This document shows, in pieces, positions 5,520 through 37,777 of a stretch of DNA of 61,890 nucleotides. The stretch lies in NCBI RefSeq assembly GCF_004010195.1, contig NC_057756.1, positions 1,557,476 to 1,619,365 of the forward strand, written 5' to 3'. The notes below the pieces were generated by a model, which did no database searches, was not told the origin of the DNA, and worked only from the letters and a program-made list of their open reading frames with translations. The position numbers and the translations under genes were made by a program. How positions within the stretch are numbered: the first letter of the stretch is position 1; each line of letters begins with the position of its first letter. This DNA comes from Chiloscyllium plagiosum. Its lineage: Eukaryota.

Positions 5520-5843
5520 ATGAGCATTTTTATGTGTTATAAAGCAGTTTTTTTCTTAATGTGATCTCTGATGTTCGGGGAACTGTTCACGAGCGGAGTG
5601 ATACAGCACTCCATCAATACGCCTATATTCCAAATGACAGGCTTTGGGGTCCATGCATGCAATGCTTTCGCAGTTCCTTGATGTGCTTTAAGGTAGGCCA
5701 TCGGCCAGGGCTTGCTTAAAATTGCAAGTATAATAAAAGATCAGTTGATGTAAAACACGGCTGAGAGACTGTGACCAGTATTGGGCACCAGTGCGGAGTT
5801 TTTGTGTGGTGAAGTAGGTAGATCTTGAGCCAACATTATTCAC
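5520..5843 (-). CDS. Candidate terminal exon of the micro-exon coiled-coil gene (codes G-E-stop, then 3'UTR)
   Basis: Acceptor aattgcag|GT GAA TAA closes a phase-1 chain; left boundary approximate; only a variant poly(A) signal (CATAAA) seen near 5530. Confidence 0.4.
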
Positions 5844-6379
5844 CTGCAATTAGCATACACAATATTGCACACAGGAAAGTTTCTCTGAAGTGATGACAAT
5901 TGAAGTTCAATCAAGTAGTCACAGTTTGAGTTTATTTTTAGCCATTCTGCCTGTTGAAGTGGAAACTGGTCAAGTATACCTTACTGGATTTAAAATACCT
6001 TGCTCTAATTTTATGCATTTTCTCTAGCTGTTCCACAATGTCATTTAACAATGTGATTATATCCTATTTTATCCCAATATAATCATGGTCAATATATATT
6101 TATTTATCTTTTATTGTTATCTATCAACTTCTTCATATTACATTTACCATTTTTATTGTCACAGTCAAACTTGGTGCATTAATGTCAGTGTTACCTGGAA
6201 GCCCAAAAGATTGACTTCCTTATCTTGATCTACAGTATAATTTTCAGTTACAACGGTTTGCTAAATTAATATTCTGCATGTTGCATCACATAAGAACATT
6301 GCACAATTCGTAGAAATTCACATTTCTCATATGGTTTATCTTTACTTTTATTAAATTATGACTAATGCTGATATCACAA

Positions 6380-6930
6380 CGATAGCACAGTCAATAAAGC
6401 ACTCCAATGGCTCTATGTCCTTAAAAACAAAGTAAATTCGGCATTCTTGCCTTCAGATGCATCACCGCCCAAGATCAAAACAAGTTCCACAATGTTGTAA
6501 ACGCGACCCAGTTTATAAAACACACACGCACACAGATACACACACAAAGTAACCTTCCTTCGATTGACTGTATGTACACTGCCCATTCCACGGGAAAGCA
6601 GCCAACTTAATCAAACACTCCACCCTCCCTTCCCTCCGAACTGCACCCTGTATATACTGTCTTCCATCGGACAGACGTTTGAACATACATGCTAATAGAT
6701 TCAAGGGCCTCTTCTTCCAAGCTTTTATGAGACTTATGACTGGTCCTCTCCTGTGGTAGGACTGACTATTCTCTGAACCTTCTCTGTAGCTGTAGCACTG
6801 CATACTGCAACTGATCAATTCCCCCATATATTCGATGCATTTATATGTGATGCAATTTGTCTGGATAATACAGATGCCAAAATATTTCACTGTACCACGA
6901 TATCTGCGACAATAATACATCAAATTAAAT
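6380..6930 (+). mobile_element. Decayed Rex1/Babar-like LINE 3' end
   Basis: Resembles the C-terminal AQDxxKLQRVVNxAQ region and 3'UTR of the better copy at 24150-25095. Confidence 0.55.
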
Positions 6931-8090
6931 CAAAGATGATGAATGTTATTTAACATATAGTACCGAATTATTTTACAGTGTTATTTGTTTTCTCTGCAAT
7001 CTATGGGTATTCTCCCCATGTGCAGACTTTCAGTTAATATAAGTTACTGGTTGGATTGATATTTCATTATGACATATACTTATCCTTATGGATGTAACTT
7101 TTTATCATTTTAAAATAAACATTCCATTTACTGCTTAATGTTTACTGCAATTAACTACTTACAACTCTATCCCAACAATTCCCTAACAATAGTAACTAAA
7201 CACATTTTACACAGCAATTTATTATCTAAATTATACTTCTGCATAGATATAATGCAGTTAATTTAAGATTCCAAAATATCATTGAATGACATGAATTTTA
7301 CTTATGGAAATGAGTACCAGAGAATATTAAAGTAACTTGCAATGTCACAGATATAGAAGGTGCAACGTGGTCAAGAAACCTTGGTATATTTCGATTATTT
7401 TATTATAACTAACACCTGAAATCTGTCTGGGATCAACAGTAAAGTGTTAAACTTAATTTAGAGTCTGCACTTCCTATTTCGCAACTTTTGTTGTCATTAA
7501 CTCTATATTCTTATGAGCCTGTTACAGTGATTGAATTCAAACAATGTCTTCTGATATACATGCAAAAATATCCCTAGTTCATTGTTAATAATACAAACGT
7601 GATGCATCATGGAGTCATGAAAGAAAATCAGATCAGACAGAGAATGCGCAATATGCTAGTAGTTGATACTGTGAGAAAATCGTACTTAGTGTTTCATTTC
7701 TGTTATCACAATTTATAATTGGAGCATTAACAAATACAAAGAAATGGAAAGGAGGAGGGGCAACGAACAATAATTGCATTTTTGATGCATAATTAGTTAA
7801 CAAAAGTGATAATGTTGCAATGACTCGAAATATGAACAATGACATAGAGAAATTCTCGAGGATAAGTACAATAAATGAAAGCAGGATTACTCACAACAAA
7901 TGCAGTCCATATTGGGGTGGGGGGGGGGGGGCGGAGGGGGGGTGAAGGCAAATGGAAAGAGCCTTCTTCTATGTTTATTTATGATAAATGAAAATGAAGA
8001 TGAAGCAACTATTCAGTCAGATGCAATCTAATCAGGTCAGATAAAAAGAAATACTCAAGAAAAATATTGAGCAAATTTTGGAATGCATAC

Positions 8091-8117
8091 CTTTCTCCTT
8101 ACTTCTCAGTTTTTGTT
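8091..8117 (-). CDS. Micro-exon, 27 nt: EQKLRSKEK
   Basis: tttag|AACAAAAACTGAGAAGTAAGGAGAAAG|gtatgc; phase 1; similar to the 18590 exon (KLxxKEK). Confidence 0.8.
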
Positions 8118-9154
8118 CTAAATTTAATAAATAAGAAGTGTTATTGACATAAATGTGAAAATGCAATATATCCACAATAACTATTGCTTGAAACAACAGG
8201 CCGATGTATGTACATATCAAATTAAAACACAATTCTCGTGTTTCTTGAGTTCTGGATTACTTTATCTTCGTCATTAAACTTCTGAAATGACAATAATTGA
8301 TTTGTAGGACTTGTGAAACAACTGAGAATATCTCAATGATCATGTTAAAATATCGTGCAGCTGCCGTTTCGCTACTTTGCTAAATCATATATTCAGTCTA
8401 GGTTACGAATCTCATTTTACGCATGATTAACATACGGTCATAACTTTAATATGCATGAAGCAATGGACATGTAATTATGCAGAACGGAATTTTTGAAAAA
8501 AAAAGAAACAATTTGCAAGTATGCTTTCTTCACAATTTTTGTCGTTTCTGTAGAAGTTACGAAAATGACATTTCTTCCACAACAACTTGAATGTTAACAA
8601 AAAAAAGTTTTTTCCTTCGTGTGGAAACTTTTACGATTCTGTAGTATTGTTTGGTTGTGTGCCCGGTTCAAACAACGTTTGTACCCAGTTCCAGCAAAAC
8701 ATTTGAATTGCATAAACTTTGAAACGTTAAACCAGAATAAGAAAATAAATTTTCTCAATACTAATACTTGATTTGTTAAGACATGAATGCTCATTATATG
8801 GCTGGCCTTTTGTTTTCCCCCGCTCTTCCGATGGACCATTTATAACTTTATCAATCAAAATTTTATCCAGTTTTATCTTGAAAATATTCAATAAACCTGG
8901 TTCTGGTGGGTTTTCTTTTTTTTTGGGGGGGGGGGCGGGGGCAGAGAGAAGTCTAATGACAGACAACAGAGAGAAAGAAAAATAAGCAAATATTTCTCTA
9001 AAATAGTCCTCCTTATTTTTCGAAGCTCTCCATTCCAGAAGCATTCTCGAAGGGAAGTGATATCTTAGTATCCACTAAATGAGGTCTTTCCATCGTCATC
9101 CATTTTCAACAGATCACCTTTCACGCTTAAAAAATGCTTCAATGGATTAAATAA

Positions 9155-9470
9155 TCCCTACAATGTGGAAACAGGCCAGCTAGATCAACATGTCCAAACC
9201 GACACTCGACAGAGTAACCAATCCAGACCCATTCCTCTACCCTATTGCTCTAATTTATCCCCCTAAACAATGTACCTAACCTAACACATCCCTGAACACT
9301 ATGGGCAATTTAGCATGTCTAATTCACCGAAACTGCATATCTGTGGAGCCCTCAGTGGGTGTCCATGCAGACACGTGGATAACATACAAAGACAGTCATC
9401 CGAGACTGGAATCCAACCCAGTTCCCTGGTTCTGTGATGCAGCAGGGCTTACCACTTAAACACTGTACCG
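9155..9470 (-). mobile_element. HE1-type tRNA-derived SINE (decayed)
   Basis: Aligns by eye to 59545-59850 (GGGCAATTTAGCATG core, GTGGAAACAGGCC tail). Confidence 0.75.
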
Positions 9471-9989
9471 GTAACAACATTATCATTCAAATGCATAAAT
9501 AAAATGCTCAAATCTAGAACGACAGTACATATTGTTCAAGTTGACCTCATACGATGAACTCTCCACCTATAGTAATTATTGCAGAGACGACTCTCAAATC
9601 AGATTTAAATGCATGCAACGGCTTTGCCAAGTCACTGGAAATAAATTAAAACTGCTATACATAATGCATAAATAAAGAACAAAGAATTTAAAAAATTACA
9701 ACACAGGAACAGCCATTCACCCTCCTCGTCTGCACTGATCCAGATCCTCTGTGTAAACCAGTTGCCTATTCTCTAAGAATCTGTATCCATCTGCTCTATG
9801 ACCATTCGTGTACCTGGGAGGAAGTGAGGACTGCGAATTCGGGAGATCAGAGTCGAGAGCGTGGTGCTACAAAAGTGCAGCATCAGAGGAGCAGGTGAAT
9901 TGATGCTTCAGGCGCCGGCCCGACATCATCATTCGTACTTATATATGACATAAACTGGGATCTTCATTAACCCTGATTGCTTAAGATAT

Positions 9990-11820
9990 CTCATGACCCC
10001 TTTTAGTACTCTTAATTCCTCGTTTCAGATTGGTCCTTCTTTCCCAATATTCTTCCAAACCTTTGTCTGTTTTCTGTCACCGAGACCTTACATATGCTTT
10101 CTTTTGCCGCTTAGTTGGTCTCACAATTTCATTTATAATCTATGGTTCCATAATCTTGCCATTTTTAATCCCTCATTCTCAACGGGGCATGTCTGTTCTT
10201 CACTCTAATCAAACTCCCTTAAAAAACCTCCCACATAGCAAATGTGGATTTCTATTCAAACAGCTGCTTCAAATCCACATTCCCCAGCTGCTGCCGAATT
10301 TTGCGATCATTAGCCTTCCCCAAATTTAGCACTATTTATTTAGGACCGTCTTGACATTATCCATGAGTATTCTAAAATTTACGCAATTATGAAGACTATT
10401 CCCAAAGTAATCACTTATTGAAAATTCAGACATGTGGGTGCGCTCTATCACACGTTTCCTATTTCTGAGCTCTACTAATATTGTCTCACTGTTCGAGTCC
10501 TCCACAGTGCCCTCCGCCAGCAAAGCTGCCATATCCTCTCTGACCAGTAATGCAAAACCTCCACTCCTTTCATCTTCCTCTCTGTCCCGCCTGAAGCTTC
10601 GTTACCATGGGATAATTAGTTGCTAATCATCCCTTCCCTCAACAAAGTCTCAGTAATAGCGATAACGTCATATTTCTAGGTAATAAATTAAACCAAATAT
10701 CATCTGCCTTACCAACTACACTTCGGACATTAAAACAACTGCACTGCAAAGCCCCTTGTGTCTTTACAATCATCATTTGCTCCCTGCCTACTCTTCCCCT
10801 TTGTCACGTTAACTTCATTTTTTAGTTCCTGCAAAGCTTCAATTACTACCTCCTTACTGTCCACTAACTTCCTCAATTCGTTTTCATCCCCATGCCACAT
10901 TAGTTTCAACCCGCACCAACAGTGTAAGCAAAAACACCTCTTCAGACCTTCCTTCCAGTCTGGCCCAGGCTTGGCACATCCAACTCGTAAAAGTCCCAGC
11001 TCACCCAAAATCAGTCGCAATGTTACAAAAATCTGAACACCTTCCTTCTGCATCATATCTCAAGCCACACATTCATCCTTCCTATTGTTATATTTCCAGC
11101 CTGATGAGTATATAGCACTGGTAGCATGCTGAGATTACTACCTCTGAGGTCTTACTTTTTAACTTTGCTCCTAACTCGCTGAATTGTGTGTGTGGACCTC
11201 ATCTCATTTTTCTTAAACCTATATCATTGCTGCTTACATGCATCAAGGCAGCTGGCTGCTCATCCTCACCCTTCAGGATGTTATGTAGCAGATATGAAAC
11301 ATCTCTGACCCGTGAACCTGGGAGGCAACATACCATTCAGGAGTCTCGTTAAAGGCATATACACTTCCCTTGTAATTGAATCCCCGATGACTGTAGTCTT
11401 TCCACTCTTTTACCCTTAATTCTGTACTGCAGAGCCAGTTACGATGCCATGAACCTGGCTGCTGCTGACTTCTATTGGTGAGCCATCACTACCACAGTAT
11501 GGAATACAGTATACCTGCTTTGGAGGGATATGACCGCAGAGGACATCTGAAATGCCTTTCTTCTCTTTTTCTGTCTTTTATTTATCTATTCCTTCTCTCC
11601 CTCAGAAATTAGAATCTACAGTATTACTAATTCGCTAAACGTTCTATCCATGACCCCTTCAGCATCAAGGATGCTCCAAAGTGAGTCCACGTGCAGCTTC
11701 ATAGCTGTAATGCAGTCTAACAACAGCTGTAACTGGACACCTTTACTGCACGTGAAGGAGTCAACACCATCAACAGTGTCCCCCTGAGTTCCCACATTGA
11801 GTAAAATGAGCACAACATGG
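9990..11820 (-). mobile_element. Decayed CR1 (ORF1 + endonuclease, internally deleted)
   Basis: SETILVELRNRK, GNSLHNCVNFRILMD and ORF1-like LQLLLDCI...VMDRTFSELV remnants. Confidence 0.7.
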
Positions 11821-12544
11821 TGAGGCAGTTTTACAAATGGAATCAAGAATGGCTGTAAATTGTAAATGGGTCGTGGTGCTTTGGGGTAATATGGAAATTG
11901 GTGTATTCAGTTAGGAAAGATTAATTGGCATCACAAGGATGTAGCAATATTTCAAGAGATTGATTGAAGTGACTATCATTACTGTAGAACTTATCAATCT
12001 TGTTCAAAACACAGGAAAACATTGAAACCAGTGGAATTCACTAAACAGTTTGAAGCTAATTGAATTTGTTCCAATCAAGATCTTCATGAATCTGACGGAA
12101 CAGGAAATGACTGAATCCAAGTTACATCAGATCACTAACACCAACAAAAATGCATCCTGTTGGTTTCAAATGCTCATGAACAAAGTAATGTTATTTGGTA
12201 ATTTTACCCAGTTGCAAAATATGGTTTTGTCGATACATTTTCCTCTCTGCTCATGAATCTCTTAAGTTCATTTGTATGTAAGTAAATTATTTTGATTTTG
12301 TTATGAATCGGAATGATCTTTCATGGTTCCAGAGGGTGATACTGTGTACAAAAAAAGTACATGAACTAATACCACGGCATTGAAGATAAACCTCAATTTT
12401 GATTGCTCATATTAACTGGGAAGTACACCTTCATTATTTATAGCTTACGTACACCGTTTGTGCGTGCAACTGAAATACTTTATTTTCCCAACAATTTCAT
12501 ATGGTATCCTTAGAAATCTGATATAAGCTCTCTTTTTTGTTCAC

Positions 12545-12580
12545 CTGAATCTTGGCAAGTTTCTTTCAAAATTTTCTGTT
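12545..12580 (-). CDS. Micro-exon, 36 nt: EQKILKETCQDS
   Basis: ttttttgttcaatatcag|AACAG...GATTCAG|gtgaac; paralogous to the 15905 and 19674 exons. Confidence 0.85.
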
Positions 12581-14478
12581 CTGATATTGAACAAAAAACA
12601 AGTTTCAATGGGTAAAGCCAACAGTTCTTAAACTGTTAAACAATATACAAAAATATTCTGAAAAGCATCTATAAGGAATTTGGCCAGACAGACGCCGAGA
12701 TTGTCCCATTTCATTTGTGACATTACTGAAGATGCAATCACTTAATCATTGAACATGAAAAACGTACTTGGATGAAGAAAAAGAAGAACATTCTCCTTTT
12801 TCAGATTCAACACTGGTTCTCTGGCAGTTGCGAGTAAGAGCGTTGTAACATTGCTTTTGCTTGTGTGTCACTTTTTTTTTATCATGATAGTTCTTGATAA
12901 GTCTTTCTTAAACTGGCCATTCGAGAAACAGACTTCGACCAATGGAATGTGCTCCTTCTTAGATGGAATCCTTGTTGTGATATAGTTCTAAGTATTTTAT
13001 TTGTGAATCTTGTTTTTGTTGCTTAGTGTTTGATATTAGTGCTGGCAGAACTTAACTGAACAATTATGCAAGCAATGTGAGGGCTACAAAAAGCCACAGA
13101 CGAGGAATACATATGTGCTCTCTTAACAGAATAAGACTTTACAGCAATTCTGATAATGTGAGCAAATTGTAACTATATCCAATAATTTTATTACACTTGA
13201 AAGTTCGAAGATAATATTAACATATAACATAATCACTCACTGGAAAACAAATGAAATCCGCTGACGCATTTAATGGATGGAAAGTTATCATTTTAACTGT
13301 AATAAAGATGTGAGCTTTTCGATGAACCAAAATGGCTGCCACTCAAGCGAAGCTATCTTTCGAAGCCATTATGTAATAACCCATTCACCGGTGGACAATA
13401 TCTAAGTGCCATATCGCTAAGATACATTATTTTCATCAACACATGCCCAATGAGTCTCCATATGAATAATTTATTCCTGCTGTAATGGAGTGCTGTTACT
13501 GTATGTTCCACTGAACTTTTAAATATCCTTCCATTCGGTCGCATGTATATATAAGTTTCACATTTGAAGCGTTGTGCATGAGGTCATCATATCTCATGAT
13601 AATATTTATGAATTTGACTGCAAAGGTGGAAATGTTGGATTGATAAATGGGAAGAAGTTCTCATGGTACCAAAAAAGCATTATCTCCAGAATCCCCCACC
13701 TCGCCAACCTGAGGTTGCGAAAGAACATGTATTTAATTTAAGTTGATAACATTCACTGCCTTGACCAAACTTGGAAATTAATTGTTACCGAAAATGAACT
13801 TAAAACATTCTGCATTGTCCTGATGTTCATAGTAGGTCAGGTATCACATTCAGTTATTTCATAATCGAAAGAACAAAATAAATATGGGATGTGGAAACAG
13901 AGACTTTTTTTAAAAAAATGCATTGTTCGACCTCTCACAGACTGCTTTACATCTAAAGAAAAGTGTAGCCGGATGATAAATAGGCTGAATTAACTCCATT
14001 GTGCTAAACACTCTAAATTGTCTTTAAAGCATTTAGTGAAGTGATTTGCTTATTTTAATTTAAAAGATAAAGAACATATGTCGAAAACATAATCCTTTTT
14101 ACATGATTTACATGACACAATCCCCAAGCTGCTGGAATGAGGACTGGGATGTTACATTCGTTTCTTCACTGGTATGCATGTATTACAACCCCAAAGTACA
14201 TCTTCGTCAATGCAGTTATCTGCTGCAAAGAGTGTCAAGGTCCACATTCCAAACGCTTTGTAACTGATGCGTGATGTTCTGAATTCCCCAAATGTTTTAG
14301 AAAAACTCTCCAATTTTCAAAGGCAATTTTCTGGGCCTCTATCCAACAGCACCATAGCGTACATGTCAACTCTCCTGAAACTCTGAAATACGTTCCAACT
14401 TTGATTGCGTAAGGCACAGCTGGTTCTTATTCAGAACAATGATCAGGCACTTTCCAGATTCAAAAGGAAAATATTTAC

Positions 14479-14505
14479 CATTCGCCAACCTTTCCACAGC
14501 GGCCT
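14479..14505 (-). CDS. Micro-exon, 27 nt: EAAVERLAN
   Basis: ttaacag|AGGCCGCTGTGGAAAGGTTGGCGAATG|gtaaat; keeps the heptad register. Confidence 0.75.
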
Positions 14506-14919
14506 CTGTTAATTGCAAAGGGAAATGAAACATATTTTAAAATATGAAACACAGGCAAGTGTTAGCACAAGATGCAGATCATTTACATTTGCCACGGGGT
14601 ATATATGCAGTCCATTGTCCACTCAATTAAAATTTTGATTAAAATTGCAAAAAATAATTTTCATTATGAAAGCAGCTTAAATCAAATTGTCATCCCGCCA
14701 ACATTTATATATCAAGATCCTCCGAAATCCTGTCTCTTGTTATCATTAAACGTGATTTTTCCAGCAATGATGGTAGTGTCATCAACAGTTCCGAATTGCA
14801 GATCTTTGATTCAATCGCTACAGAAACAAAACAGAATAATTACTTTTGTATGAGACTAAGGTACACCATTAGTCGTCAGTACAATGCACCGAATGTACAG
14901 GAACAGAGCCAAAAAAATC

Positions 14920-15725
14920 GTAAGATCATAAGAAATAGGAGCTAGAGTAGGCCATCTGGATGATCGATCCTGCCACGCCATTCAATTAACTCATAACTGG
15001 ACTCGTGGACTCAGCTCCACTGACCTGCCCGTTCACCATGAAACATAATTACTTTTCTGATCAATAATCTATCTATCGTTGCCTTAAAAAAAATCAACGC
15101 GGTAACCTGAACAGCTTCATTAGGCAGTGAATCCTACAGATTCACAGCCCTTATCTGAAAAAAATTCTTCTCCATTTAGTCACAACTTTGCTCACCATCA
15201 TATTGAGACTATACCACCAGTTATGGTTTCATGAGCCAATGAAAAGAAAAGCTCCTTACATTTGTTTTATCCGTTCACTGGATAATCGTATAGGTTTTTG
15301 CAAGTTTCCACCTCACATTTTTCGAAATTCCTGTGTGTGCATTCCCGTTGACTTAATTTCTCCACATAATTCAACACGCTCAATTCCGAATTCAAACTAT
15401 TGAACCTCCTTTGCATCCCCTCCGTGCAAATGCATCCTTTCTCAAATAAGGAGACCAAAACATTCTTTAGTACTCCAGTGTGGCCTGACGATCGCTGTGT
15501 ACAAATACAGTATTACCCTTCTGTTTTTAAACTTCATCCCCCCCGAAATGAAGAACAATATCCCATTTGCCTTCTCAGTTACCTGCTGCAACTGCAAACC
15601 AACTTTTTATGATTCCTTCACAAGCACATCCATGTCCCTCTGCTCAGAACACTGTAATTTTTCACGAATTGAATAACAGTCCATTTTGCTGTCAATCCTA
15701 CCATAATTGATGACTCCACATTTAA
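14920..15725 (-). mobile_element. Decayed CR1 3' region
   Basis: Tail taagaaataggagc...gtaggcc; EGMQRRF remnant. Confidence 0.7.
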
Positions 15726-15904
15726 CACAATCTCCTTTGAGCCATCACCACAGTTTTATTTCATTTAAACCACATCTCTACTTTCATTATGCTTCAGTAA
15801 TATTTTTGAAGAAGACAACTACTTCTATTTTGGAATTCATTCTAAGATTTCTCTTTCTAAGACTGTAATTTCTTATTCCATGTGCTTAGCAACATGATTC
15901 TTAC

Positions 15905-15940
15905 CCGTGTCTTGGAGATTGACCTTCAAGGCGTTTATAT
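15905..15940 (-). CDS. Micro-exon, 36 nt: DINALKVNLQDT
   Basis: ctttcatcacag|ATATAAAC...GACACGG|gtaaga. Confidence 0.85.
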
Positions 15941-18589: not shown

Positions 18590-18616
18590 CTTTTTCTTTC
18601 TGAGTCAGTTTAATAT
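18590..18616 (-). CDS. Micro-exon, 27 nt: DIKLTQKEK
   Basis: ttccatttgttag|ATATTAAACTGACTCAGAAAGAAAAAG|gtaagt. Confidence 0.85.
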
Positions 18617-19673: not shown

Positions 19674-19709
19674 CCGTGTCCTGCAGAGTTTCCTTCAAAA
19701 TCTGTAGAT
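19674..19709 (-). CDS. Micro-exon, 36 nt: DLQILKETLQDT
   Basis: tactttcttaag|ATCTACAG...GACACGG|gtaagg; same exon end and donor as the 15905 exon. Confidence 0.85.
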
Positions 19710-22167: not shown

Positions 22168-22194
22168 CTTTCAGTTTTTCTTTGAGGAGGGTCT
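22168..22194 (-). CDS. Micro-exon, 27 nt: ETLLKEKLK
   Basis: gttttgattag|AGACCCTCCTCAAAGAAAAACTGAAAG|gtaagc. Confidence 0.85.
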
Positions 22195-24150: not shown

Positions 24151-25095
24151 GATGGATTGAATTGAATTTATTGTCACGTGTACTGAAGCACAGTGAAAAG
24201 CTTTATTTTACGAGCAATAGAGGCAGAGCAAAGAGTTAAGTAGAATAGATAAGTAAACAATAGGTAAACAGCGGTTAAAAAATACCCCCAAAAACACAGG
24301 TAGACGCGAATGTTAAGAGATTGTCAATCCATTCAGTATTTTAAAAACAGTAGGGTAGAAACTGTTTCGAAATCGGCTGGTGCATGTTTTCAGGTTTCTG
24401 TACCTTGTCTCCGATGGTAGAGATTGCAGAAAAAACTTTGCCAAGGTTGGAGAGATCTTTAAGAATACTGGCGGCCTTTCCTTGACATCAGACCTGATAG
24501 ATGGATTCTATAGATGGAAGATTGGCCTTTGTGATTGTCTGGGCTGAGTTTACCACTCTCTGTAACCGTCTCCGATCTTGAATAGTAGAGTTGCCATACC
24601 AGGTAGTGATACATCCAGTCAGAGTGCTCTCGGTGGCGCACCTATGAAATCTGGCCAGTGTATTTGCTGTCATGCCAAACTTCCGCAGCTACCTGAGGAA
24701 GAAGAGACGTTATTGGGCCTTTGGAACCAATGCATCCACATGAAGAATCCTAGAAAGCTTGTTGTGGATGACAACTCCGAGGAGCTTGACACCCTCCACT
24801 CGTTCCACCTCTGTGCTGTCCATGTGACATGAGTAACATCCACCGAAAGTCAATAATGATTTACTTGGTTTGCCTGCATTCAGAGCTAGGTTGGTCTCAG
24901 TGCACCATTGTCCCACATCTTCCACTTCCCGTCTGCAGTTTGTTTCGTGGTTATATGAGATTCGATCGACTATGGTGGTGTCATCAGCAAACTTGTAAAT
25001 GACATTATTCTGGTATTTGGCGACGCAGTAATAGGTATGCAGTGAGTACAGTAAGGGGCTGAGTACACACTCCTTGGGTGCTCCAGTGTTGAGTG
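24150..25095 (-). mobile_element. Rex1/Babar-like LINE 3' part
   Basis: QWCTETNLALN, GCITTWYGNSTIQDRRRLQRVVNSAQTIT; (TTGAA)n tail on + at ~24156. Confidence 0.8.
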
Positions 25096-25982
25096 TTAGT
25101 GAGGATAAACCTCAGTAAAATAGTTAAATCTGGGAAACTTGGTCAGTGTTGGCGAGGCGGACCAAAGAGTCTGTTTCTGTGTTGTATTACTCAAAGACTC
25201 TCGGACGTAAGTTCTTTCATTTGACAATCTCAGCATAATTGTAAAAAGTGGCTTGTTTTCATGTGGTTTCTTTAGCATCTAGGTTTACACTTTGTACGCA
25301 GCCTGATCTTACTGAAGTAGCACGAAGTATCACATCCGTCCATTCTTTATACAGATAGTTAATTCCTACAATGTTAATTGTATTATTATATTTGATAAAT
25401 TTCCAAGAAGGAGTATACATGGTATTTCGCTGCATGCCATCGGTTTTGCTTAGCTTCAAATTGCACCAATAACACGTAGCACACAATTCAAAAAACATTT
25501 TTTTAATATATATTGTTAATTTTACGGACAGCGATGTTTTTAATCTCCATGAACGCGTTTTGAAAGCTAATTCTGATGCTTGTAGCTTTGGTTAGTTGTG
25601 ATTTCGAAATCAATGGTGATGAGTATCTTGCTGATGAAACTTATAACTATTGCTGCAATGAAAATAGTAAAGTGCATAACTCTTCTACTGAGTGCATTTA
25701 GGGAATAATTGACAGTGCAGAAAACTATCGAAGAATGCCTACGGAGAGAATGGCGACCGGGTCAGTGTGGGTCATTAAAATGTTTTTTTTTTCCCTCATG
25801 CTGATAACTATTTCGAGGTTAATGTTTCCCTAGAATTATAGCGCTCACGATAGTCATTTCATTGCATTAAATTCAGTCGACTGCTTTAAGGGAGAACAGA
25901 GAATGCTCTTGTTTGAAAATAGCGCACATATATATACATTTCAAGTATTTCTATGGAAATTCGAAGTTGAACAAACACTTAC

Positions 25983-26018
25983 CCAGTTTTTGGCATTCGT
26001 CCCTCGTTTTCTCTAATT
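25983..26018 (-). CDS. Micro-exon, 36 nt: ELEKTRDECQKL
   Basis: aatacag|AATTAGAG...AAACTGG|gtaagt. Confidence 0.8.
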
Positions 26019-28069: not shown

Positions 28070-28975
28070 ACTGTAAATTTGCTTCGCCCGCGTTCTCCAA
28101 TGACCTCCACCAGATCTCAGCCGCTTACCGAACCTCCAACCTTGAAAGCCAACCTTACAATCGCAATAACGTTAGAATCTTCTTGTCCTCTACTTCCACC
28201 CCACAAACCTCCAGATATATCTCATTATCCTCTGCGATTTCCACCACCTCAAAAAGACCTCATCACCAAGGACATGTTTCCCTCTCCACCGCTAATTTCT
28301 CGTGTTAGGTCCACGCCCCCACGAAAGCACTTTGCATTCCCAGCACCTTGCCGTGCCACCACAATGTCTTTAAAACCTGCACTCACACCTCAACCCCTTA
28401 CCTCCGTCCGAGGGTCCAAAGGAGCCTTCCAAATTCGTTAGAGCTTTACCTGTACTTCCACACAAGTCATCTAATGTTTCCATGCCTCCTGATGTGCTCT
28501 ACTCTACTTTGAGGAGACAGGAAACCAACTTGCAGAATGTTATAGAGAGTATCTCTGTGACAAACACTCAAAACCATCCTACCACCCAGTTACCGAACAC
28601 TTTAACTACCCCTCCCACTCTGAAAGACATTCAAGTCCTGGGCCTCCTCCACTGGTAAACACTTAACACCTGGCCCCTGGAGGAGGAACGCCTCATTTTC
28701 AATCTTGGGACAAAGGAGCTACACGGGTCAATGTGGATCTAACCAGTTTCCTCATTTCCCCTCCCCTCAATGTTCCTCAGATCCGACCTTTCAACTTGGC
28801 ACTGACCTGTTGACCTATCCTGCCTGTCCGTCTTTCTTCCCCTATCGGCTCCATCCTTATCTCAGACCTATCATGTTCGCAGCTAATTTAATCTACCTAT
28901 CGCATTTTCAGCTAACTTCTCCCCAGCCCCACCACCCTGCCATTCATCTCTCCGCCCTCAATGGTCCACAAGCCT
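28070..28975 (+). mobile_element. Decayed Penelope-like 3' region (GIY-YIG + 3' repeat), interrupting an HE1-type SINE (27880-28020 / 29110-29250)
   Basis: PLTSVRGSKGAFQIR, LYxxET...LAEC..E remnants; ends in a hammerhead-type short repeat. Confidence 0.65.
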
Positions 28976-29793
28976 TGTTCCTACTGAAAACCTTATGCTC
29001 GAAACATCGACTCTTCTGCTCCTCAGATGCTACCTGACAGGCTGTGCTTTTTCAGTACTACAGTCTTGTAGTCTGATCTCCAGCATCTGTATTCCTCACT
29101 TTCCACTGACAGTATTAACTTTGCCTAGGGATATGCAGGCTCGGCATATTAGCCATAGGAGGGATAAGGTAGTGAGGTGGGTCTGTGTTGAATAGTTTTC
29201 GGTGGGTTGATATGCACTCAATGGCCCTAATGGCCTGCTTTCATACTGTTGAATGCCTATTCTATCACCATAAAAGCTGAAGATGCTTGGTCCGTGAAGG
29301 TCTCATGCACAGAGATCCTGCAGCTAGGATAGCGGATTTAAAATAACAAAAGCAATCTTATCGAGAATGAAGTGTGGCATAAACTGGTGGCGAGATTCTG
29401 ACTGAATCCCCATTGGCCTAAGTCGAATGGTGGCCACAGACGAGTTGTCGTTTGTTATGTAACAAACCTCCTTCATTAGTACGATCCTTTATCGTAGGAA
29501 GCTTTGTTCTTATGCGGTCTTATCTAAATATGACTTCTGGACAACAGGTAGTATGCTTGAGCTTTGTTGGGCCTCCGAAAATTCCATGCAAGCTATTCAG
29601 TTGCACAGGTCATTCAGAAATCTCAGAACATAATAAAACAAATAAGGATATGTTGTAGACCTTGGTACTGGAGCGACAAAGGGAAGCTCAACCTTACAAA
29701 TCATTCATTCAAATATCAAGTGGTTAAGTTCAAAAATGGGAGAGATGATCCGAACAGATTCCACTCAGCATAAGCATGCACAAGGATTCATAC

Positions 29794-29829
29794 CTTGCAG
29801 GGAGTGTTCCAGGCACAGTGTCTTCATCT
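29794..29829 (-). CDS. Candidate micro-exon, 36 nt: EMKTLCLEHSLQ
   Basis: caatcag|AGATGAAG...CTGCAAG|gtatga; right size and phase, but weak pyrimidine tract and imperfect heptad fit. Confidence 0.55.
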
Positions 29830-30930
29830 CTGATTGTGCTTACTTCCATCCTCTGGGCAGACTGAACAGCAGTGTTCTACAAGCTTACAACATTGTCTCC
29901 CGGTATGCCAAAGTCTCATAGCCTCAATGACAAGAAAATGTCCTGTATACTAATCCCAGTCTCTCCACACTCATCGCTGCATCCCTCTGGCGTTCGAAAT
30001 AGTTCTTTCCCTGTTGGGCATCCATTGAATTAAACACCAGGAGTACCAAGGAATTGCAACGAACTCGGGAGGGAGACATCATAGGTCAGCGCTAATAGTA
30101 ACTGGGAATCACAAACTCTAATCTAGCTAGTCGAGCTATAAAGTTCCTGGTTATTAGGCACATTCCTGGCAGGTGGTGAGATAAAGAAAAATTGGAAGCA
30201 GACATCTGGACAAAAGCATTCCATCCTCTGAATAGAGCAGTTTTTTGACTGAAAGAAAAATGTCTTAATGTTAGTTTTTGAAATAATTGGCATTTCTTCT
30301 CTATTCTGCATTGCCAGAGTTGATCACCATCTGCTGACTTCCTTTCCCATCACGAAAGATACTTTCATCCCTGGTACCAATGCTTTTTTGCCAGCTGTAC
30401 CCATCATGATCTATAATTACAAGTTACCCGCAATGCCATCTAACCCAACAATCTGCCCAGTATGATTTCTGAAAATCTAGCAATATATCCAACATCCAAA
30501 TGGCAAGCGTCTCACCTGGCTCTCTAATTAACTGGCACATAACGTTTGTGACATCGTACCCCCAAGTCAATTGGTAGCAAGTTCTGCTTTCACGCTATTT
30601 TCACGTAACCTTGATATCATAATTTTCTGATACACGACTCTTTACACGTTTATCGTTGCACTATACCAAAACAACTAAAACAACTTCCTGTATACACAAA
30701 ATTAGGAAGAACTTGTCAGAGGGGCGTCTGATTGCAAATGATAGCTGTCAATATAATCTTCCATCGCGCCTGGCTTGCAGCTAAGCTGTAAAAGAAAAGT
30801 TCGAACTTTTGTAAGGGCCTGTTTCTGAATAGGCCCTGTGGAGTATCTCATCTCAGACATGCTGAACTGCTGTTTCTCGAGGTTTAAGTTGCGTTTACTT
30901 ATTACTCCATCACAACTGCTTTCTTTGTAT

Positions 30931-31510
30931 GTAGTTTTGCTCACTGAGCCGCAAGGTTCATTTCCAGATGTTTCGCTACCAGACTAGGTAACATCTTCAG
31001 TGAGCCTCCGGATGAAGCACTGCTTCGTATTTATATGTTTGGGGTTCTATGGGCTGGTGATGCCATTTCCTGTGGTGATATCATTTCCCACAGTGATGCC
31101 ATTTCCTATGACAATGTCATTTCCTGTTCTTTTTCTTGGGGTGGTAAATGGGGTTTATGTCAATGTGTTTGTTCATAAGAGTTCTAGTGGGAATGCCATG
31201 CTTCTATCAAAAAACACATTGAGTTGGACTCCATTTGTCACCCTCTGAGAAAAAGAACATGAAATGACACCACCATAGGAAATGACATCACCACTGGAAA
31301 TAGCGTCACCGCAGAGAATGTCATCAGCAACCCAAAGAAGCCCAAACATGCAATTAGAAAGCAGGAACCATCAGCAGTGCTTCATCTGGAGTCTCACTGA
31401 AGATGTTACCTTGTATGGTGCCGAAACGCCTGAAAATGAATCTTTCAGCTCAGCAAGCAAACCTACATCCAGAACATCAGCCTGAGCTACAAAACTTCTC
31501 AAACCTCGCT
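30931..31510. mobile_element. Fold-back PLE-derived non-autonomous element with a hammerhead-like motif in each arm
   Basis: Inverted arms (GTGATGYCATTTCC repeats vs GAAATGACA repeats); right arm CTGAAGA-TGTTACC..GGTGCC-GAAAC; same CCTGAGCTACAAA tail as the 54070 element. Confidence 0.75.
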
Positions 31511-31829
31511 AAATTATTTCTCGTCTGCCCCACTGGCGAAGCTACAAAGCAGCAAATGATAGACGGATTAAAGTATGTGTATCAGCTCCCATTCGAATCT
31601 AAGCTCCAGAACTATGCCACATCCACTACGGTTAATGGTACTAAACCTTTCAACAAATTATTGAGGTCTCCCTTCTGATGTGTTAGAGATTATTGAGTTT
31701 AGGAAACGAATTTTAGAATCCCTTCAGTTACGACATGGTGAGTGATTTCTAGCTTTAACAAAAGTCTAATTAATAATAACTTCAACATGACAACAGCAAC
31801 CACGTTGTCAGTTGTACAATGACAACGCT

Positions 31830-32285
31830 TTCATATTTTTTCATTTGTGGGACATGGACATCACTCGCTGGCCAGCATTGATACCCTTGCCCTATTTGCT
31901 CTTGCGAAAGTGGTGGTGGGTAGGCTTCACTTGCTGTGGGTCATTTCTTTGCTGTGACTTTCTAGAGATTGATACAAGTGAGTGGCTTGTTAGGCCATTT
32001 CAGCGAGCACTGGAGAGTCTCCCACGTTGCTGTGGCTCTGGGGTCACGTGTAGGTCAGATCAGGTATGAATGAAAGATTTCCTTTCCTGAAGGAGACTAG
32101 TGAACCAGATGGATTTTTTTCCCGAAAATTGAAATTGGTTTATTAGTCATCAGGTGAGTTTAATTCCAGGTTTTGCATATTGAATTCAAATTCCACCATC
32201 TGCCCTGGTGGGATTCGAACCTACGTCCCCAGAATATTCTTCTGGGTTTTTGGATTAAGAGTCGAGCAATAATACCACTTGGAGA
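31830..32285 (-). mobile_element. tRNA-derived SINE, SacSINE1/DeuSINE-like
   Basis: B-box GGTTCGAATCCC on minus strand near 32215; body shared with 45110-45800 and 61605-61740. Confidence 0.6.
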
Positions 32286-32684
32286 CAGTGAGATCTGCAG
32301 GTGGTGGAGATCACAGCACGGCAGGCAGCAGCTGAGGAGCAGGAAAATAATTAACACAACTAGGCCATCGTCTCCACCATTTCATTTTTGCGACATTGCC
32401 GAGTGTTCTTTGATGCTGTACTCAATAACAGTCCATTTTAATGTTAGGATCTGTTGGCAAGCCTCATGCCTGGAGTACAACTCATTCTTTCATATTTTGA
32501 CAAAACATTTAACTGTCACTGGAGATAACTGTCCACAATGAAACAATGTGCAGATTATCCTGATTTAAATACTGCTTCAATGCGCTATTGACGTTTCCTT
32601 CAATCTTCTCTCTTGATAGTAAAGCGCAGAGATAATCATGCCAATTGACTGTATGCGACTTCTCTTGGTTTTAGAACAAAGGTC

Positions 32685-33650
32685 AATAAAACAAAGAGCA
32701 GTGCTGCACAGGAAGGCCCCTTTTCCCTCCACACCTTAGCCAATCGTTATGCTCGATCTAAAACAATAAAACAAAACTTGTGCTTTTATTTGGTCGATAG
32801 CCCTCTACTCTTTCATTAAGTTAACCATCCAGATGCCGCTTAATTGTCGTCAAAATGTTTGTTTCCGTCATCTCCTCTGGCAGTATGTTAAAGGTTACTA
32901 CCACTTCCCTCGTAGATCTCCCTTAGACTTTCCCCTGCTTTCCTTGAACCTATACCTCCTTGTTAACGTAAATTCAAATCTGAGAAGAATTCTCTGGCTA
33001 CCTACCCTATCTATGCTTTTCATAATTCTGCAGATCTCTATCAGGTCTCTTCTAGGCTGTCGTCTTACCAATGAAAGGAATCCTTGTCTTTTTAACGTTT
33101 CCTCTTAGCCACGCTTTAGAGAGTAGGAAACATCCTGGCGAACCTGCTGTGTGCAATCTCCAAATTTTCCACAACCTTCTGTTACTGTAGCGATCACAAT
33201 CAAGCACAATGCTCCAAAGGCAAAATGGCTTGCCAACTTTTTTCCTCTATGTCCCAACCGTTGAAGTCAAGGACGTCATTTTTAGGGAAATTTGGACCTG
33301 CTTATCCAAATCCATCTTTATGTTAATATTACAAGTGTTCTGATATTTACGTTATAAATCACACCTACATCTAATCCTCCAAAATGCATCACACCACGTT
33401 TGTCTGGATTAAGCTCCACCTGTATTTTCAGCGCTCAAGTCGCCAATCTATGTATATACTTGCACAATTCCCGTTATTATCAGCAACTCCAGAAATTGAC
33501 CAATCAGATCTACCACGTTTCCTTCACGACCATTGTTTTATATTGCGAAAAAACACAGGCTCCATTAGAACAGACAACCTGTCTCCATTATGTAAAACAC
33601 CCTTCTATCACTCCTGCCTGTTTTCATGACCAAGTCAGTTTTGTATCCAG
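32685..33650 (-). mobile_element. Decayed CR1 RT/3' region
   Basis: Recognisable CR1 3' segments (ctctatcaggtc..., aacatcctggcgaacct...). Confidence 0.65.
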
Positions 33651-34190
33651 GAGAAAGTGAGGTCTGCAGATACTGGAAATCAGAGTCGAGAATGTGGTGC
33701 TAGGAAAGCACAGCAGGTCAGGCAGTATCAAAGGAACAGGAGAATCGACTTTTCAGGCATAAGCCTTGCCAGCCTATCCAGAAAGCCGTGTGAGCTTTTG
33801 GGCCATTAACCACACAAATCTTTTCAGAATACACAACAAAACATATATTGAAAGATGTTAATGCACATAAATGCATCGTCAAGTGTTTCACCAAACAAAA
33901 TGTGTGTGTGTGCATGCATGCGCATAAATACACATATATATGCTCATATACAAGTTTTATATGCATAGCACTTCAAGTTCACAAAAGTATTATACTCATT
34001 TAATGAAGGAAAGTCAACAATTAAAGGTCATGTTTTATCAAAGAACAAAGACATTTGGCACCACTGTCCAATGAACAAACTTTGAATATTTCAGACTGCA
34101 GCATCAACTAAGTATGACAGACCGTATAAATTATGAAGTATGATTAAGGTAACCTTAAATTGCAAATGCAAACTGACAAAATGCATTCAC

Positions 34191-34217
34191 CTCTGAGCTT
34201 CTCAAGATTCATTTCGT
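34191..34217 (-). CDS. Micro-exon, 27 nt: DEMNLEKLR
   Basis: ttaaacag|ACGAAATGAATCTTGAGAAGCTCAGAG|gtgaat. Confidence 0.7.
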
Positions 34218-35045
34218 CTGTTTAACGTGACAAAATAAAGACGATTTATTTAAATGTTAAAAGGACAAAACATTCTTTTAGTGATTTTCTTTGAGAAAAT
34301 TCCATTCCTTGAAACATAGTTGTCATTGTTGTGCAGTAGACACAATAGTACATTAAGACATAACAAAAAAGAAACGACGTGTTGTGCAAATCAGTTGATG
34401 CTGCAATTTTGATAGCGGACATGAAGACGTAGAAGGAAAAGCATCGTGCATACCATGGTCGAATATTCACACTCGCATATCAGGCTCATTATCAATATTT
34501 GTTTAATCGTTAAATCTGTTTGACGGTCCACCAAGTACTACAGTCCCTCTGGAGTGTAAATTGCCATGATTCACGAGAGGTCATGTGAGAGGCATGCTAT
34601 CAATTTGAGGATTATACATCAAAGAGTTTGGTGGAATTCTTTTCAAATTTATATCTATTAATTGACAGATTAACGTGTGTTTTCTTTGTGTTGCAGGTTC
34701 TTTGACAATTTCTGGCCTGAGGGTAGAAGAAGTATAAATCACCAGAAATGCATTCGCTCTAAATAGTATTTTCCAAATGAATGAGTGTAACTGGTTAAAG
34801 TCCTTGCAGTTTGGAGATCTTTGTTTCAATAAAAGAAAAGTAGTGTTCAAACAAGTAGATCAATATCCGCGAGAACTGCGTGTTTCTTTCATTCAGATAA
34901 TGGCCGATCTCATAATGATGCCATTTTAGTACATCAAAAGCAGCAGGTCTCTACTGTCCACATTATACATAATAATATAGAATTAATAATCGTTTGAAAC
35001 TTCGAAGGGAAATAGTGACGCCAGCAACAGAAAATTCAGTATTAC

Positions 35046-35063
35046 CTGCCTTTATCTTTTCTT
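35046..35063 (-). CDS. Micro-exon, 18 nt: EEKIKA
   Basis: Strong T-tract ...ttattttcaatataacag|AAGAAAAGATAAAGGCAG|gtaata. Confidence 0.7.
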
Positions 35064-36312
35064 CTGTTATATTGAAAATAAAAAAAAATACAGATATTTT
35101 TTCAATGCAAGAACAACATTGAACATATTTTCTGGATAAGTAACAACTTTCCAATCTGCCCTGAAAGTCTGCATACTTTGCTATCGTTTAAGTTGAAGAC
35201 GTTTTGCAGCAATAGTTTTCTACTTCTACAACCAAGGTGGCAACAGCTCGCAGGAGTGTTTGAACTCAAGATTTATATGTCCTCAAAAGTAAGATAAAAA
35301 GAACATTTATTAATTATATTGCATCAGAGAAAAATAACTGAACAGCGAAAAAAAATGTAATTTCCTTCAGCTCCAATTTCTGGCGATCTAGCCTTTTAAC
35401 CATGAAGGTAACACATACTTGAGAGGAACAGAACGGTTTCAGGTAATATTCAGGAATTACATTTAGATAATATTTGAACACTGGTAAAGAAATGTGTCAT
35501 GTTACGTTCAGTAAATAGGTTTTTGATCCTTCTTGCGGAGTGTGGCATGTTAGTCATGTTCTATATTTTTAGAAAAAGAGCCAGAACACGTGTCACAAAT
35601 TAAAACTCATTCAAAAAATGTATCACATTTAACTAGATATTTCGAATGATGTCAAGATCAAAACCAAGAATAGTCTCTTTTTTTCAAACGTTCCTACCCT
35701 AAAATGAATGTTTCGAACACATCACCATGTCCTTTTCAGAAGAGCCAACGCCAAAGATAAGCTTGAGTTTGAACTGTGTATTGCAGCATTGTGAAAATAT
35801 TTAAGGCTTGCAAGAAACGATCCCATGTAACGGGGAATGTTCAATTCTCATAACAATTCACATGTAAAGTACTACGGATTTATTAGCTGTTCTTGGCGAA
35901 GTTGGTAGCTGAGAGCTCGTGGAAGGTTTTATGTGATAGTGATGTGACAGAGAAGAAACCATGAACCGAAAAATTATACAGTATTCGTTTGAATAACCGA
36001 TTGAAACTGAAGAAAGCTTCCCCGGCTTTCCAGTGTTTGAACTGTACATTACCTTTGTGTACATTTATCTACATACAGTTATACATTAGAACATTAGAGA
36101 AGAGAAATGACAGTTTTATATGATACTGAACATACCAAGCAGTGCATTACTGAGTATAGTGTGAATAGTGAACCGATTTTAAAGCAACATATGCTGTTTT
36201 CTTGTTAATTTGCATCACATTAACAAAATAATTGAATGAAGCTATCAGTTGTAAATGAACGAAGTCTTTTCAAAGCGAATTATTTGCATGGTTTTAAATT
36301 ATCTCAACTCAC

Positions 36313-36348
36313 CTAACTCAGCAATGTTCTTCTGCATAGTTCGTTGCG
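36313..36348 (-). CDS. Micro-exon, 36 nt: AQRTMQKNIAEL
   Basis: tacttttcag|CGCAACG...GAGTTAG|gtgagt, both sites near consensus; first residue depends on the upstream exon. Confidence 0.8.
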   Translation of the reverse strand, partial: RNELCRRTLLS

Positions 36349-37741
36349 CTGAAAAGTAATCAAGGTTTTAAGTAATTTTCTTATGGGAAGCTTAGCTGAA
36401 CATGTTGCTGGGATAATATTTTGCTTGTGACATATGGAAGTCTGTGATAGGAATATCGTGTGAGGGCAATCAGGCACGTGGCCTGGGGGATGAATAATTT
36501 GAAAGTGTGTATTGAGTAAAGAAATGCAAAAATATTATCTCGCCTGCTGCCCGACGCCCAACAGGACAAGAAAAAGTCAGAAAAGTTACGTATCATTAAA
36601 GTCTAAGCTAGCAAGGAGTACACAATTGAAAACGGAATGAAGCCTGAGAAAAGTGTACAAGATTATATGCGTGGGCACTATTTCCCTTGTAACAGTACAA
36701 AAAAGCTACAATTTGTTTTGATAGAGTAACTCGGAATTCGGAGTACACTGCATTGAAAGTTTGCAGCAGATAGAAAAAAAATCTCTATTTGGAGCACAAC
36801 TGGCTATAGATTTTTGGCGATTTTTATTAGAAATAATAATTCTTGGTATGTGATGCTTTTTCAATGCAGCGAATTCAAAAGCGAATTGTATAATTAATTT
36901 ATCCCCATGGTTATCAATGCTGTGAGGAAGTCAATATATTGATTCGAAACTAAAACCTTGTTCTGAATTCTAAACAAAATATGAAAAGACAGCGAGGTTG
37001 GAAAATCTTATCCTAGTGTTGTGATTATTCCGTCATACAATTTCCCCATCATATTATACGTTATAAATGACCAATTCAGTAGATTTTTGACGAGATTAAT
37101 TCTAAATACTGACCCAGATTCAGGAATATCATATTAAGTATCGTTCAATACCACTCTTGAAACACAGTAGTCAACTGTTTAAGTTTATTGGATGATGTAA
37201 CTATAACACTCAGAAGTATTTAGTGCTGCAACAGACAGAATCCTTGGAATCCGTGGACAGAGAAATTTAAACTTTCAAACGGACTGAATTAGTCGGTTTC
37301 ACAATGCTACAGTTCTAAATTTAATTTTGACAATATGACAACTACTGACAAATTTCCACTAAAAGCTATGGAATAGAATGCCAGGATAAACCTGACCTAG
37401 TCTATTGGAAATATTTCATATCGTATCCATGGTCAGTGAACATATCTGTCAATTATAATTCTAACTAAAACTTGTGGTCCACATATATTTGAAAACAGAT
37501 AATGTTCGTGGCCAAATAACTTGAGTTTTGATTAAGGAGAAAATAACGTGCAGTAAGAATCGTAGAATTATCACAGCTTGGATTGAATCAATTCGGCTGA
37601 TTGTTTCTATACCGACTCTAACCAACCATTGTAACTTACTGCAATATCACTTAACCTTTGCCGGAGCCTTTGCATATTACTTCGACTTTAATATTCATTT
37701 AATGAGCTGTTGTATATCTAATTTTAGTAAGTTTTCATTAC

Positions 37742-37777
37742 CTTTGCAGGCAGTACATTCCTGACCAGATATATTAC
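37742..37777 (-). CDS. Candidate micro-exon, 36 nt: GNISGQECTACK
   Basis: gttgtgcag|GTAAT...TGCAAAG|gtaatg; size and phase fit, acceptor context weak, not coiled-coil-like. Confidence 0.45.

Follow-up and report, generated by a model that had tools for sequence, protein, structure and literature searches.

The BG genes of the chicken, which belong to the butyrophilin family, encode long coiled coils in large numbers of very small exons. In the available part of one account (PMC4046983), the coil is built from exons of 21 nucleotides (nt), sometimes 24, that carry one heptad each and number 13-36 per gene, and the genes have leader, IgV and transmembrane (TM) exons and no B30.2 exon. Butyrophilins and ERMAP follow the order IgV(-IgC)-TM-heptads-B30.2, with few heptads as far as the available parts of two sources go (PMC4046983; PMC12841164). 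The locus described here lies in the shark Chiloscyllium plagiosum. The window, that is, the whole stretch of 61,890 nt that was analysed, corresponds to C47:1557476-1619365 (C47 is contig NC_057756.1, which makes up 0.3% of a 3.56-Gb assembly), and its minus strand carries a chain of micro-exons of 18, 27 and 36 nt that code for a heptad coiled coil. With moderate confidence, the window is read as the inner part of one giant gene of an elasmobranch coil-B30.2 clade, consisting of a rod of micro-exons and a terminal B30.2 exon.

The stalk of CD23 (FCER2), a type II lectin receptor, is made of 21-residue repeats, each encoded by one 63-nt exon. In class-IV TRIM and TRIM-like genes a coiled coil is followed by a C-terminal PRY/SPRY domain, and the available part of PMC2657112 describes such genes as clustered, expanded and often immune in role. 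Searches of open-access papers and bioRxiv turned up neither coil exons that alternate between 27 and 36 nt nor a coil-B30.2 family of sharks.

Coil-coding micro-exons in the window

The original prediction, made from the letters alone, placed about 13 GT-AG exons of 18, 27 or 36 nt on the minus strand. Eleven are clear, from 36348 to 8091, and two further pieces are weaker (Table 1). All 11 begin at codon position 2 and end in G, so that the claim of a uniform phase 1 and a final G holds throughout. The eight exons from 26018 to 8091 are present as AG-exon-GT, with sizes of 36/27/36/27/36/27/36/27 nt, and a phase-1 reading reproduces the predicted peptide letter for letter, with L, I, V or C at 11 of the 12 first heptad positions and Q at the remaining one. 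The three exons assigned upstream of these, 36348-36313 (36 nt), 35063-35046 (18 nt) and 34217-34191 (27 nt), are also present in the sequence. The outer limits given for the gene correspond to the two weaker pieces: 37777-37742, just upstream of the first coil exon, encodes a non-coil peptide, and an acceptor (ttgcag) at about 5842 on the minus strand is followed by two phase-1 codons and TAA. A coil-like frame at 39779-39913 has no clear splice sites.

Equally good chains on the plus strand or in shuffled sequence had been named as grounds for refutation. The scan was run, and comparable chains are almost absent from both. A strict splice-site filter passed 14 of 3494 candidates on the minus strand, 8 of them in the chain, and 15 of 2813 on the plus strand, none of them coil-like. 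When splice sites and composition were combined over window positions 5001-38000, nine candidates remained on the minus strand and none on the plus strand; in 200 dinucleotide shuffles the same filter passed 0.68 candidates on average and never more than 4, against the 9 observed. The heptad register is unbroken across the eight exons. Within their 84-residue core (26018 to 8091), 67% of the a and d positions are hydrophobic, compared to 31% of residues overall, a value reached by none of 2000 residue shuffles.

The exons resemble one another while their surroundings do not. Identity among the three 36-nt exons closest to one another is 53-69%, and their 200-nt intron flanks show no similarity, with local scores of 10-19 that equal background. 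Exon-only similarity of this kind is the pattern expected of old duplications in which only the exon was retained.

Extent of the array and its relatives in the genome

To follow the chain beyond the window, the coordinates of 35 exons served to build a position-specific scoring matrix (PSSM), which was applied to 332 kb, made up of the window and 270 kb of flanks (L002-L028). The matrix scores the peptide and the AG/GT dinucleotides only, over stop-free segments of 36 or 27 nt, with a threshold of 8 bits; a stop-free phase was required of every match, so openness is no test. At or above the threshold were 46 of 1445 stop-free AG..GT candidates on the minus strand and 0 of 1346 on the plus strand. 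Twelve of the 46 lie outside the training set. GTAAG or GTGAG donors occur in 6 of these 12 but in 5% of all candidates; the mean pyrimidine tract of the 12 is 0.70, compared to 0.47. Across all 46 matches, the final base is G in 43, the first residue is E or D in 42, and C or T stands at -3 in 44.

The main array consists of 39 matches at C47:1398-1594 kb, spanning at least 197 kb of the contig, and a second exon group lies beyond it at C47:1678-1719 kb. In the main array, exons of 36 and 27 nt mostly alternate (there are seven same-size neighbour pairs), with spacings of 0.65-24.5 kb. The consensus is E-I-E-K/A-L-K-x-x-L-Q-D-L/T for the 36-nt exon and E-E/Q-K-L-x-x-K-D/E-K for the 27-nt exon, and one pair encodes 21 residues (12 + 9), which is exactly three heptads. 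The 39 exons together encode 411 residues. Position 7 of the 27-nt exon, a heptad core position, is Lys in 14 of 19 exons, which places a regularly spaced charged residue in the core every 21 residues.

One might suppose that there is no working gene here, and that the exons are decayed or never-expressed copies, or a chance pattern. In keeping with such an explanation, the searches of public proteins turned up none with these exons. It is nonetheless very improbable, given the strand bias of 46 to 0, the shuffles that reach at most 4 against 9 observed, splice sites that are good even though the PSSM scored peptide content, fully diverged flanking introns, and a heptad register that is maintained across exons.

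The array shares with chicken BG genes a long coil made of many tiny split-codon exons, a variable exon number and membership of a clustered multigene family, and in-frame alternative splicing is described for BG in the available part of PMC4046983. The trait of heptad repeats from tiny split-codon exons, common to butyrophilins and BG, is present here with exons of 18, 27 or 36 nt instead of the 21 or 24 nt given for BG in the same source. Unlike BG genes, the shark locus alternates 36- and 27-nt exons, with 21 residues per pair and at least 39 exons in the main array; a B30.2 exon lies at the array end, and the search of the 332 kb found neither Ig nor TM exons. The design is similar to that of BG and butyrophilin tails but differs from it in module size, in scale and, within the limits of the DNA searched, in the absence of Ig and TM exons.

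The likeness to CD23 lies in the 21-residue, three-heptad unit, which in both cases is a module of exon duplication. Here, however, the unit is split over two exons, and the downstream domain is B30.2. Membership of the CD23 type of C-type lectin receptors finds no backing: neither a Lectin_C domain nor a WIGL-type motif occurs in the minus-strand frames scanned, and no lectin exon was found there downstream of the neck.

Relatives of the array were mapped with a degenerate pattern of 34 places for the 27-nt exon and its splice sites, allowing up to 2 mismatches over the whole genome. It gave 50 matches, compared to 5 for the reversed control. Half of them (25) lie on C47 in three strand-pure runs, the second of which holds the window (Table 1), and C37 has another five, every one of them on its minus strand. 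Four matches on three small contigs (C41018:814, C57012:18 and 165, and C95580:4494) have the same 34-nt string as C47:4292620, and these copies probably represent haplotigs, or duplicates left unplaced, of the third array. For the 36-nt exon, a 30-place pattern gave 358 matches against 219 in the control, too much noise to map relatives with.

B30.2 exons and their relatives

The original prediction had also stated that no Ig, TM or B30.2 exon could be found. For Ig and TM this still stands: on the minus strand of the 332 kb no Ig, lectin, SPRY or TM motif was found, the TM search of the DNA gave low-complexity matches only, and Pfam scans of 137 and 149 minus-strand frames around the array returned no domain. 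For B30.2 it does not, as an exon of this type lies 260 kb beyond the left window edge. It was reached through a genome search for SPRY, which gave one match on C47, at 4577.7 kb on the plus strand, just downstream of the third run; the frame runs 177 codons to a stop and matches Pfam SPRY. With this exon as query, four relatives were found, two on C47 and two on C37 (Table 1). Within the set of five the E values range from 1e-115 to 4e-30, and the next genome match stands at 3.7e-21.

The arrangement of these exons is regular. On C47 each stands downstream of its run and on the strand of that run, at distances from the last pattern match of 24, 46 and 71 kb for runs 1, 2 and 3 (46 kb for the array of the window). 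Each run has exactly one cognate B30.2 exon on its 3' side, in matching phase. Of the two C37 exons, one lies downstream of three same-strand pattern matches. All five have a strong acceptor (pyrimidine content 0.71-0.82), begin at codon position 2 and run to a stop, so that the phase of the B30.2 exon equals that of the micro-exons.

This regularity bears on the explanation that the window belongs to one or more coil-only genes, similar to the chicken BG tails, that are not joined to a B30.2 exon 260 kb away; the proximity of the two would then reflect a gene cluster. Chicken BG genes are described without B30.2 in the available part of PMC4046983, an 82-kb stretch without exons breaks the array, and the acceptor near 5842 leads to an in-phase stop after two codons. 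That acceptor and stop could instead form an alternative terminal exon that truncates the protein before the rest of the array. A coil-only arrangement is distinctly unlikely, because clear exons of the same strand and design continue for at least 160 kb downstream of window position 5842, one in-phase cognate B30.2 exon lies 3' of each C47 run, and the public models of the clade join a coil to B30.2.

Those models were found with a profile of the five B30.2 exons, which matched 519 proteins at E <=1e-15 among 8000 candidates scored, most of them of the TRIM type. Three have scores well clear of the single-domain level: P0025 (945 aa, catshark), P0021 (451 aa, catshark) and P0015 (372 aa, ray). 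All three have the order Met, coil, B30.2, and in Pfam they show SPRY and a weak PRY only, with no RING, B-box or Ig domain. Their highest 19-residue hydropathy is at most 1.34, compared to 2.44 in a shark butyrophilin model, and they contain no membrane- or leader-type segment. Their source names are 'zinc-binding protein A33-like' or 'TRIM39-like'. A fourth model, P0026 (316 aa), is identical over residues 137-268 (100%) to the B30.2 exon at C37:20720 kb, and its residues 128-136 match at 100% a 27-nt, phase-1 segment with a final G that lies 4.4 kb upstream (L036:4286-4312) between ccag and gtaaga. In this independent public gene model, such a micro-exon is joined to a B30.2 exon of the family.

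A quick maximum-likelihood tree was computed from 57 B30.2 domains, comprising the 5 of this genome, the 3 of the coil-only models, 4 of butyrophilins and 45 others; 46 of the 91 other single-domain matches were left out, and the values are those of the quick search, a careful one being unfinished. A branch with a Shimodaira-Hasegawa-like approximate likelihood ratio test (SH-aLRT) value of 100 separates the five exons, together with P0025, P0021 and P0015, from the other domains, and in this quick tree the eight-member clade stands apart from shark and mammal butyrophilins and from TRIMs. Within it, the exon at C37:20720 kb pairs with P0025, and that at C37:22229 kb with P0021 and P0015; the three C47 B30.2 genes group at 94, with no public model among them. 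In this genome P0025 matches through its B30.2 part only (59% identity to the C37:20720 kb exon), and its first 770 residues gave no genome match in a stricter first look that may miss weak ones.

The window gene and P0025, P0021 and P0015 share the B30.2 clade and coil motifs similar to KD-x-E-I-x-x-L-K. Unlike the window gene, the three models pair with the C37 paralogues, and compared at the protein level their coils are shorter and lack regular 21-residue arrays. Among 121 proteins, the 111-residue chain of the window aligns best to P0025 (score 107, reached by 0 of 300 shuffles), and a 21-residue PSSM ranks P0025 and P0015 first and second; both results are weak evidence because coiled coils align easily.

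The heptad micro-exons followed by a single phase-1 B30.2 exon are what is found in butyrophilins and ERMAP, and so the window might encode the cytoplasmic tail of a true butyrophilin or BG membrane protein whose leader, IgV (perhaps IgC) and TM exons would be expected 5' of C47:1781 kb. When the B30.2 domain at C47:1296.6 kb was compared to solved structures, the 34 best matches were all butyrophilin B30.2 domains (E 1.5e-26 to 7e-21), with BTN3 and BTN2 domains at the top, ahead of the first non-butyrophilins, TRIM7 (1.2e-20), TRIM58 and TRIM21. Butyrophilins of cartilaginous fish with a variable heptad number appear in the available part of PMC12841164, the tails of BG genes are themselves made of tiny exons (as described above from PMC4046983), and the part of C47 from 5.7 to 10.2 Mb is rich in C2-set Ig exons. 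Nevertheless, this identity is unlikely. Ig-like and TM exons were not found on the minus strand of the 332 kb, and, as a weaker point, no V-set or C2-set match lies near any array among the best 150 of 1319 and the best 150 of 302 candidates. The clade models show no Ig match in Pfam and no leader- or membrane-type hydrophobic segment, the tree sets the clade apart from butyrophilin B30.2 domains, and the paralogue at C47:4577 kb (L029) matches TRIM58, TRIM21 and pyrin better than butyrophilins. Of the two identities first proposed, a BG/butyrophilin-like tail is thus partly supported: the exon design, the phase of the B30.2 exon and the matches in the PDB speak for it, and the Ig and TM exons not found in the 332 kb, the separate clade and the make-up of the clade models speak against it. 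An unrecognised coiled-coil family fits better, although the family has not gone wholly unnoticed, since other elasmobranchs have automatic gene models of it.

A TRIM gene whose coil is extremely enlarged, and whose RING/B-box exon would lie upstream, is quite improbable. Class-IV TRIMs also place a coil ahead of B30.2 (here the order is a prediction, based on where the array and the B30.2 exon lie and on their shared phase), the relatives carry TRIM- or A33-like source names, and shuffling of B30.2 exons among TRIM and NLR genes is documented in the available part of PMC2657112. Two members of the coil-B30.2 clade lie inside a large TRIM/B30.2 cluster on C37. However, C47 gave no B-box match among the best 150 of 312 candidates, P0025, P0021 and P0015 lack RING and B-box, and the long branch with an SH-aLRT of 100 divides the clade from TRIM B30.2 domains. 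TRIM coils are short and are not known to be built of micro-exon arrays.

The predicted gene and its surroundings

The favoured reading is one minus-strand gene of at least about 485 kb, bounded by C47:1296.6 kb on one side and extending to 1781 kb or beyond on the other. Symmetric phase-1 micro-exons, 36 and 27 nt long by turns, would make up almost all of its coding part, with a single B30.2 (PRY/SPRY) exon last. The product would be a long alpha-helical coiled-coil rod (the residues counted above, and probably more) that ends in a C-terminal B30.2 ligand-binding domain. The clade models begin with Met and coil and show no RING, B-box or Ig domain in Pfam and no membrane-type segment, which suggests that the protein is most likely cytosolic. 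Every exon is a multiple of three in length and starts at codon position 2, so any subset of them would splice in frame, and skipping one 36 + 27 pair would also preserve the heptad register. Cassette splicing of such in-frame, register-neutral exons could thus vary the length and sequence of the rod, as in chicken BG tails. The B30.2 domain and the clustering of the genes prompt a guess at a role as immune-type sensor or scaffold.

Several observations weigh against a single gene of this form. The gene is predicted from genomic sequence, and the joining of its exons in RNA is inferred. At its 5' side, C47:1781 kb is a lower bound. The 82 kb between the two exon groups (window 38-62 kb and L012-L016) contain no detectable micro-exon; the array might be two genes, because this exon-free stretch carries a plus-strand zinc-finger frame and transposon fragments (Table 1). 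At the 3' side, the 10 kb directly upstream of the B30.2 exon at C47:1296.6 kb contain weak candidates only (two of 27 nt and one of 15 nt, all ending in G), and the last clear micro-exon before it, at C47:1343 kb, comes from the pattern search alone, with 10 kb of the DNA between them read. The public models are also imperfect counterparts. P0026 carries few coil exons, and 21-residue PSSM units of at least 8 bits number 2 in P0025, 1 in P0015 and 0 in P0021, so that these coils are not regular 21-residue arrays. Finally, a profile of 14 exon peptides with an 87-residue window frame as its first row, compared to the proteins of 154-2000 residues in a collection of 5.8 billion, gave nothing at E <=10 among 5287 candidates. 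A profile search of the whole library over all 87 columns, intron read-through included, returned only two irrelevant repetitive proteins (P0003 and P0004), a null result. No near-identical copy of the C47:1296.6 kb B30.2 exon was found among proteins of 306-2000 residues. In view of these searches, there is no independent model of this particular gene.

If the gene is spliced as predicted, it would be among the most extreme micro-exon genes of vertebrates, with several hundred residues coded over about 0.5 Mb and hardly any exon longer than 36 nt. Gene finders and short-read aligners largely miss such genes. The heptad micro-exon design of avian BG genes, known in short form from butyrophilins, would extend to cartilaginous fish with a 21-residue module of 12 + 9, and a B30.2 clade separate from TRIMs and butyrophilins would be defined. 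The locus is a test case for micro-exon-aware annotation and for the question of whether splicing varies the length of the rod. A bolder extension, itself rather unlikely, is an elasmobranch family of half-megabase genes in which a B30.2 sensor sits on a rod of up to about 100 frame-neutral micro-exons, cassette splicing diversifies innate immune receptors by producing many rod lengths and surfaces from a single gene, and the design could be ancestral to the short heptad tails of butyrophilins and to the BG tails.

Table 1. Coordinates of exons, runs and neighbouring features (window positions unless a contig is named; flanks are given as acceptor / donor letters)
Feature	Position	Strand	Details
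Weak 18-nt candidate	37840..37857	-	ERLKCK; poor acceptor; membership uncertain
Candidate 36-nt phase-1 exon, G-ending	37742..37777	-	GNISGQECTACK; non-coil, contains Cys; good splice sites; membership uncertain
36-nt phase-1 exon	36313..36348	-	AQRTMQKNIAEL; ttttcag / gtgagt; PSSM 18.1 bits (PSSM seed)
18-nt phase-1 exon	35046..35063	-	EEKIKA; ataacag / gtaata
27-nt phase-1 exon	34191..34217	-	DEMNLEKLR; aaacag / gtgaat
36-nt phase-1 exon	25983..26018	-	ELEKTRDECQKL; atacag / gtaagt
27-nt phase-1 exon	22168..22194	-	ETLLKEKLK; gattag / gtaagc
36-nt phase-1 exon	19674..19709	-	DLQILKETLQDT; cttaag / gtaagg; exact match to 36-nt exon pattern
27-nt phase-1 exon	18590..18616	-	DIKLTQKEK; tgttag / gtaagt
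36-nt phase-1 exon	15905..15940	-	DINALKVNLQDT; atcacag / gtaaga; exact match to 36-nt exon pattern
27-nt phase-1 exon	14479..14505	-	EAAVERLAN; taacag / gtaaat; most divergent, PSSM 7.7 bits
36-nt phase-1 exon	12545..12580	-	EQKILKETCQDS; atatcag / gtgaac
27-nt phase-1 exon	8091..8117	-	EQKLRSKEK; aatttag / gtatgc; 1-mismatch match to genome-wide 27-nt pattern, C47:1565561
Pattern run 1	C47:651-971 kb	+	10 matches
Pattern run 2, holds the window	C47:1343-1781 kb (about 440 kb)	-	7 matches
Pattern run 3	C47:4293-4506 kb	+	8 matches
B30.2 exon	C47:994.5 kb	+	E 1e-67 to query
B30.2 exon, same strand as window array	C47:1296.6 kb (1296.6-1297.1)	-	E 2.5e-45 to query
B30.2 exon	C37:22229.9 kb	-	E 1e-37 to query
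B30.2 exon	C37:20720.1 kb	-	E 4e-30 to query
Open frame with at least 5 C2H2 zinc fingers, inside the 82-kb gap	52907-53494	+	Pfam zf-C2H2 3e-30, zf-H2C2_2 3e-37
RVT_1 fragment	925-2517	+	530-codon open frame broken by an N run
RVT_1 fragment	24710-25111	-	
RVT_1 fragment	49683-50108	+	
RVT_1 fragment	56737-57267	-	

The RVT_1 fragments of Table 1, of the type of long interspersed nuclear elements, lie in putative introns. No CpG-island-like bin was found. A weak PF22812 match at L028:3577-3777 was set aside as a proline-rich low-complexity frame. A fused 27+36 junction pattern, designed for intron-less copies, matched only a dispersed repeat on more than 20 contigs (for example C4:71162920 and C13:54814803); the repeat encodes a motif similar to EEK(L/S)KNKDKE(I/V), looks like the coil region of a transposon and has no relation to the arrays.

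At C47:10206150-10206700 (L031) there is a V-set exon whose signature (IYSCEFATYPDGN) is nectin/PVR-like, with a C2-set exon 1.5 kb further on (C47:10208040). Being nectin-like, this pair at C47:10.2 Mb was of no use as a butyrophilin probe. About ten further C2-set matches lie on C47 between 5.7 and 8.5 Mb. On C37, the region from 9 to 34 Mb holds most of the 150 best SPRY matches and most B-box matches, and forms a very large TRIM/B30.2 cluster.

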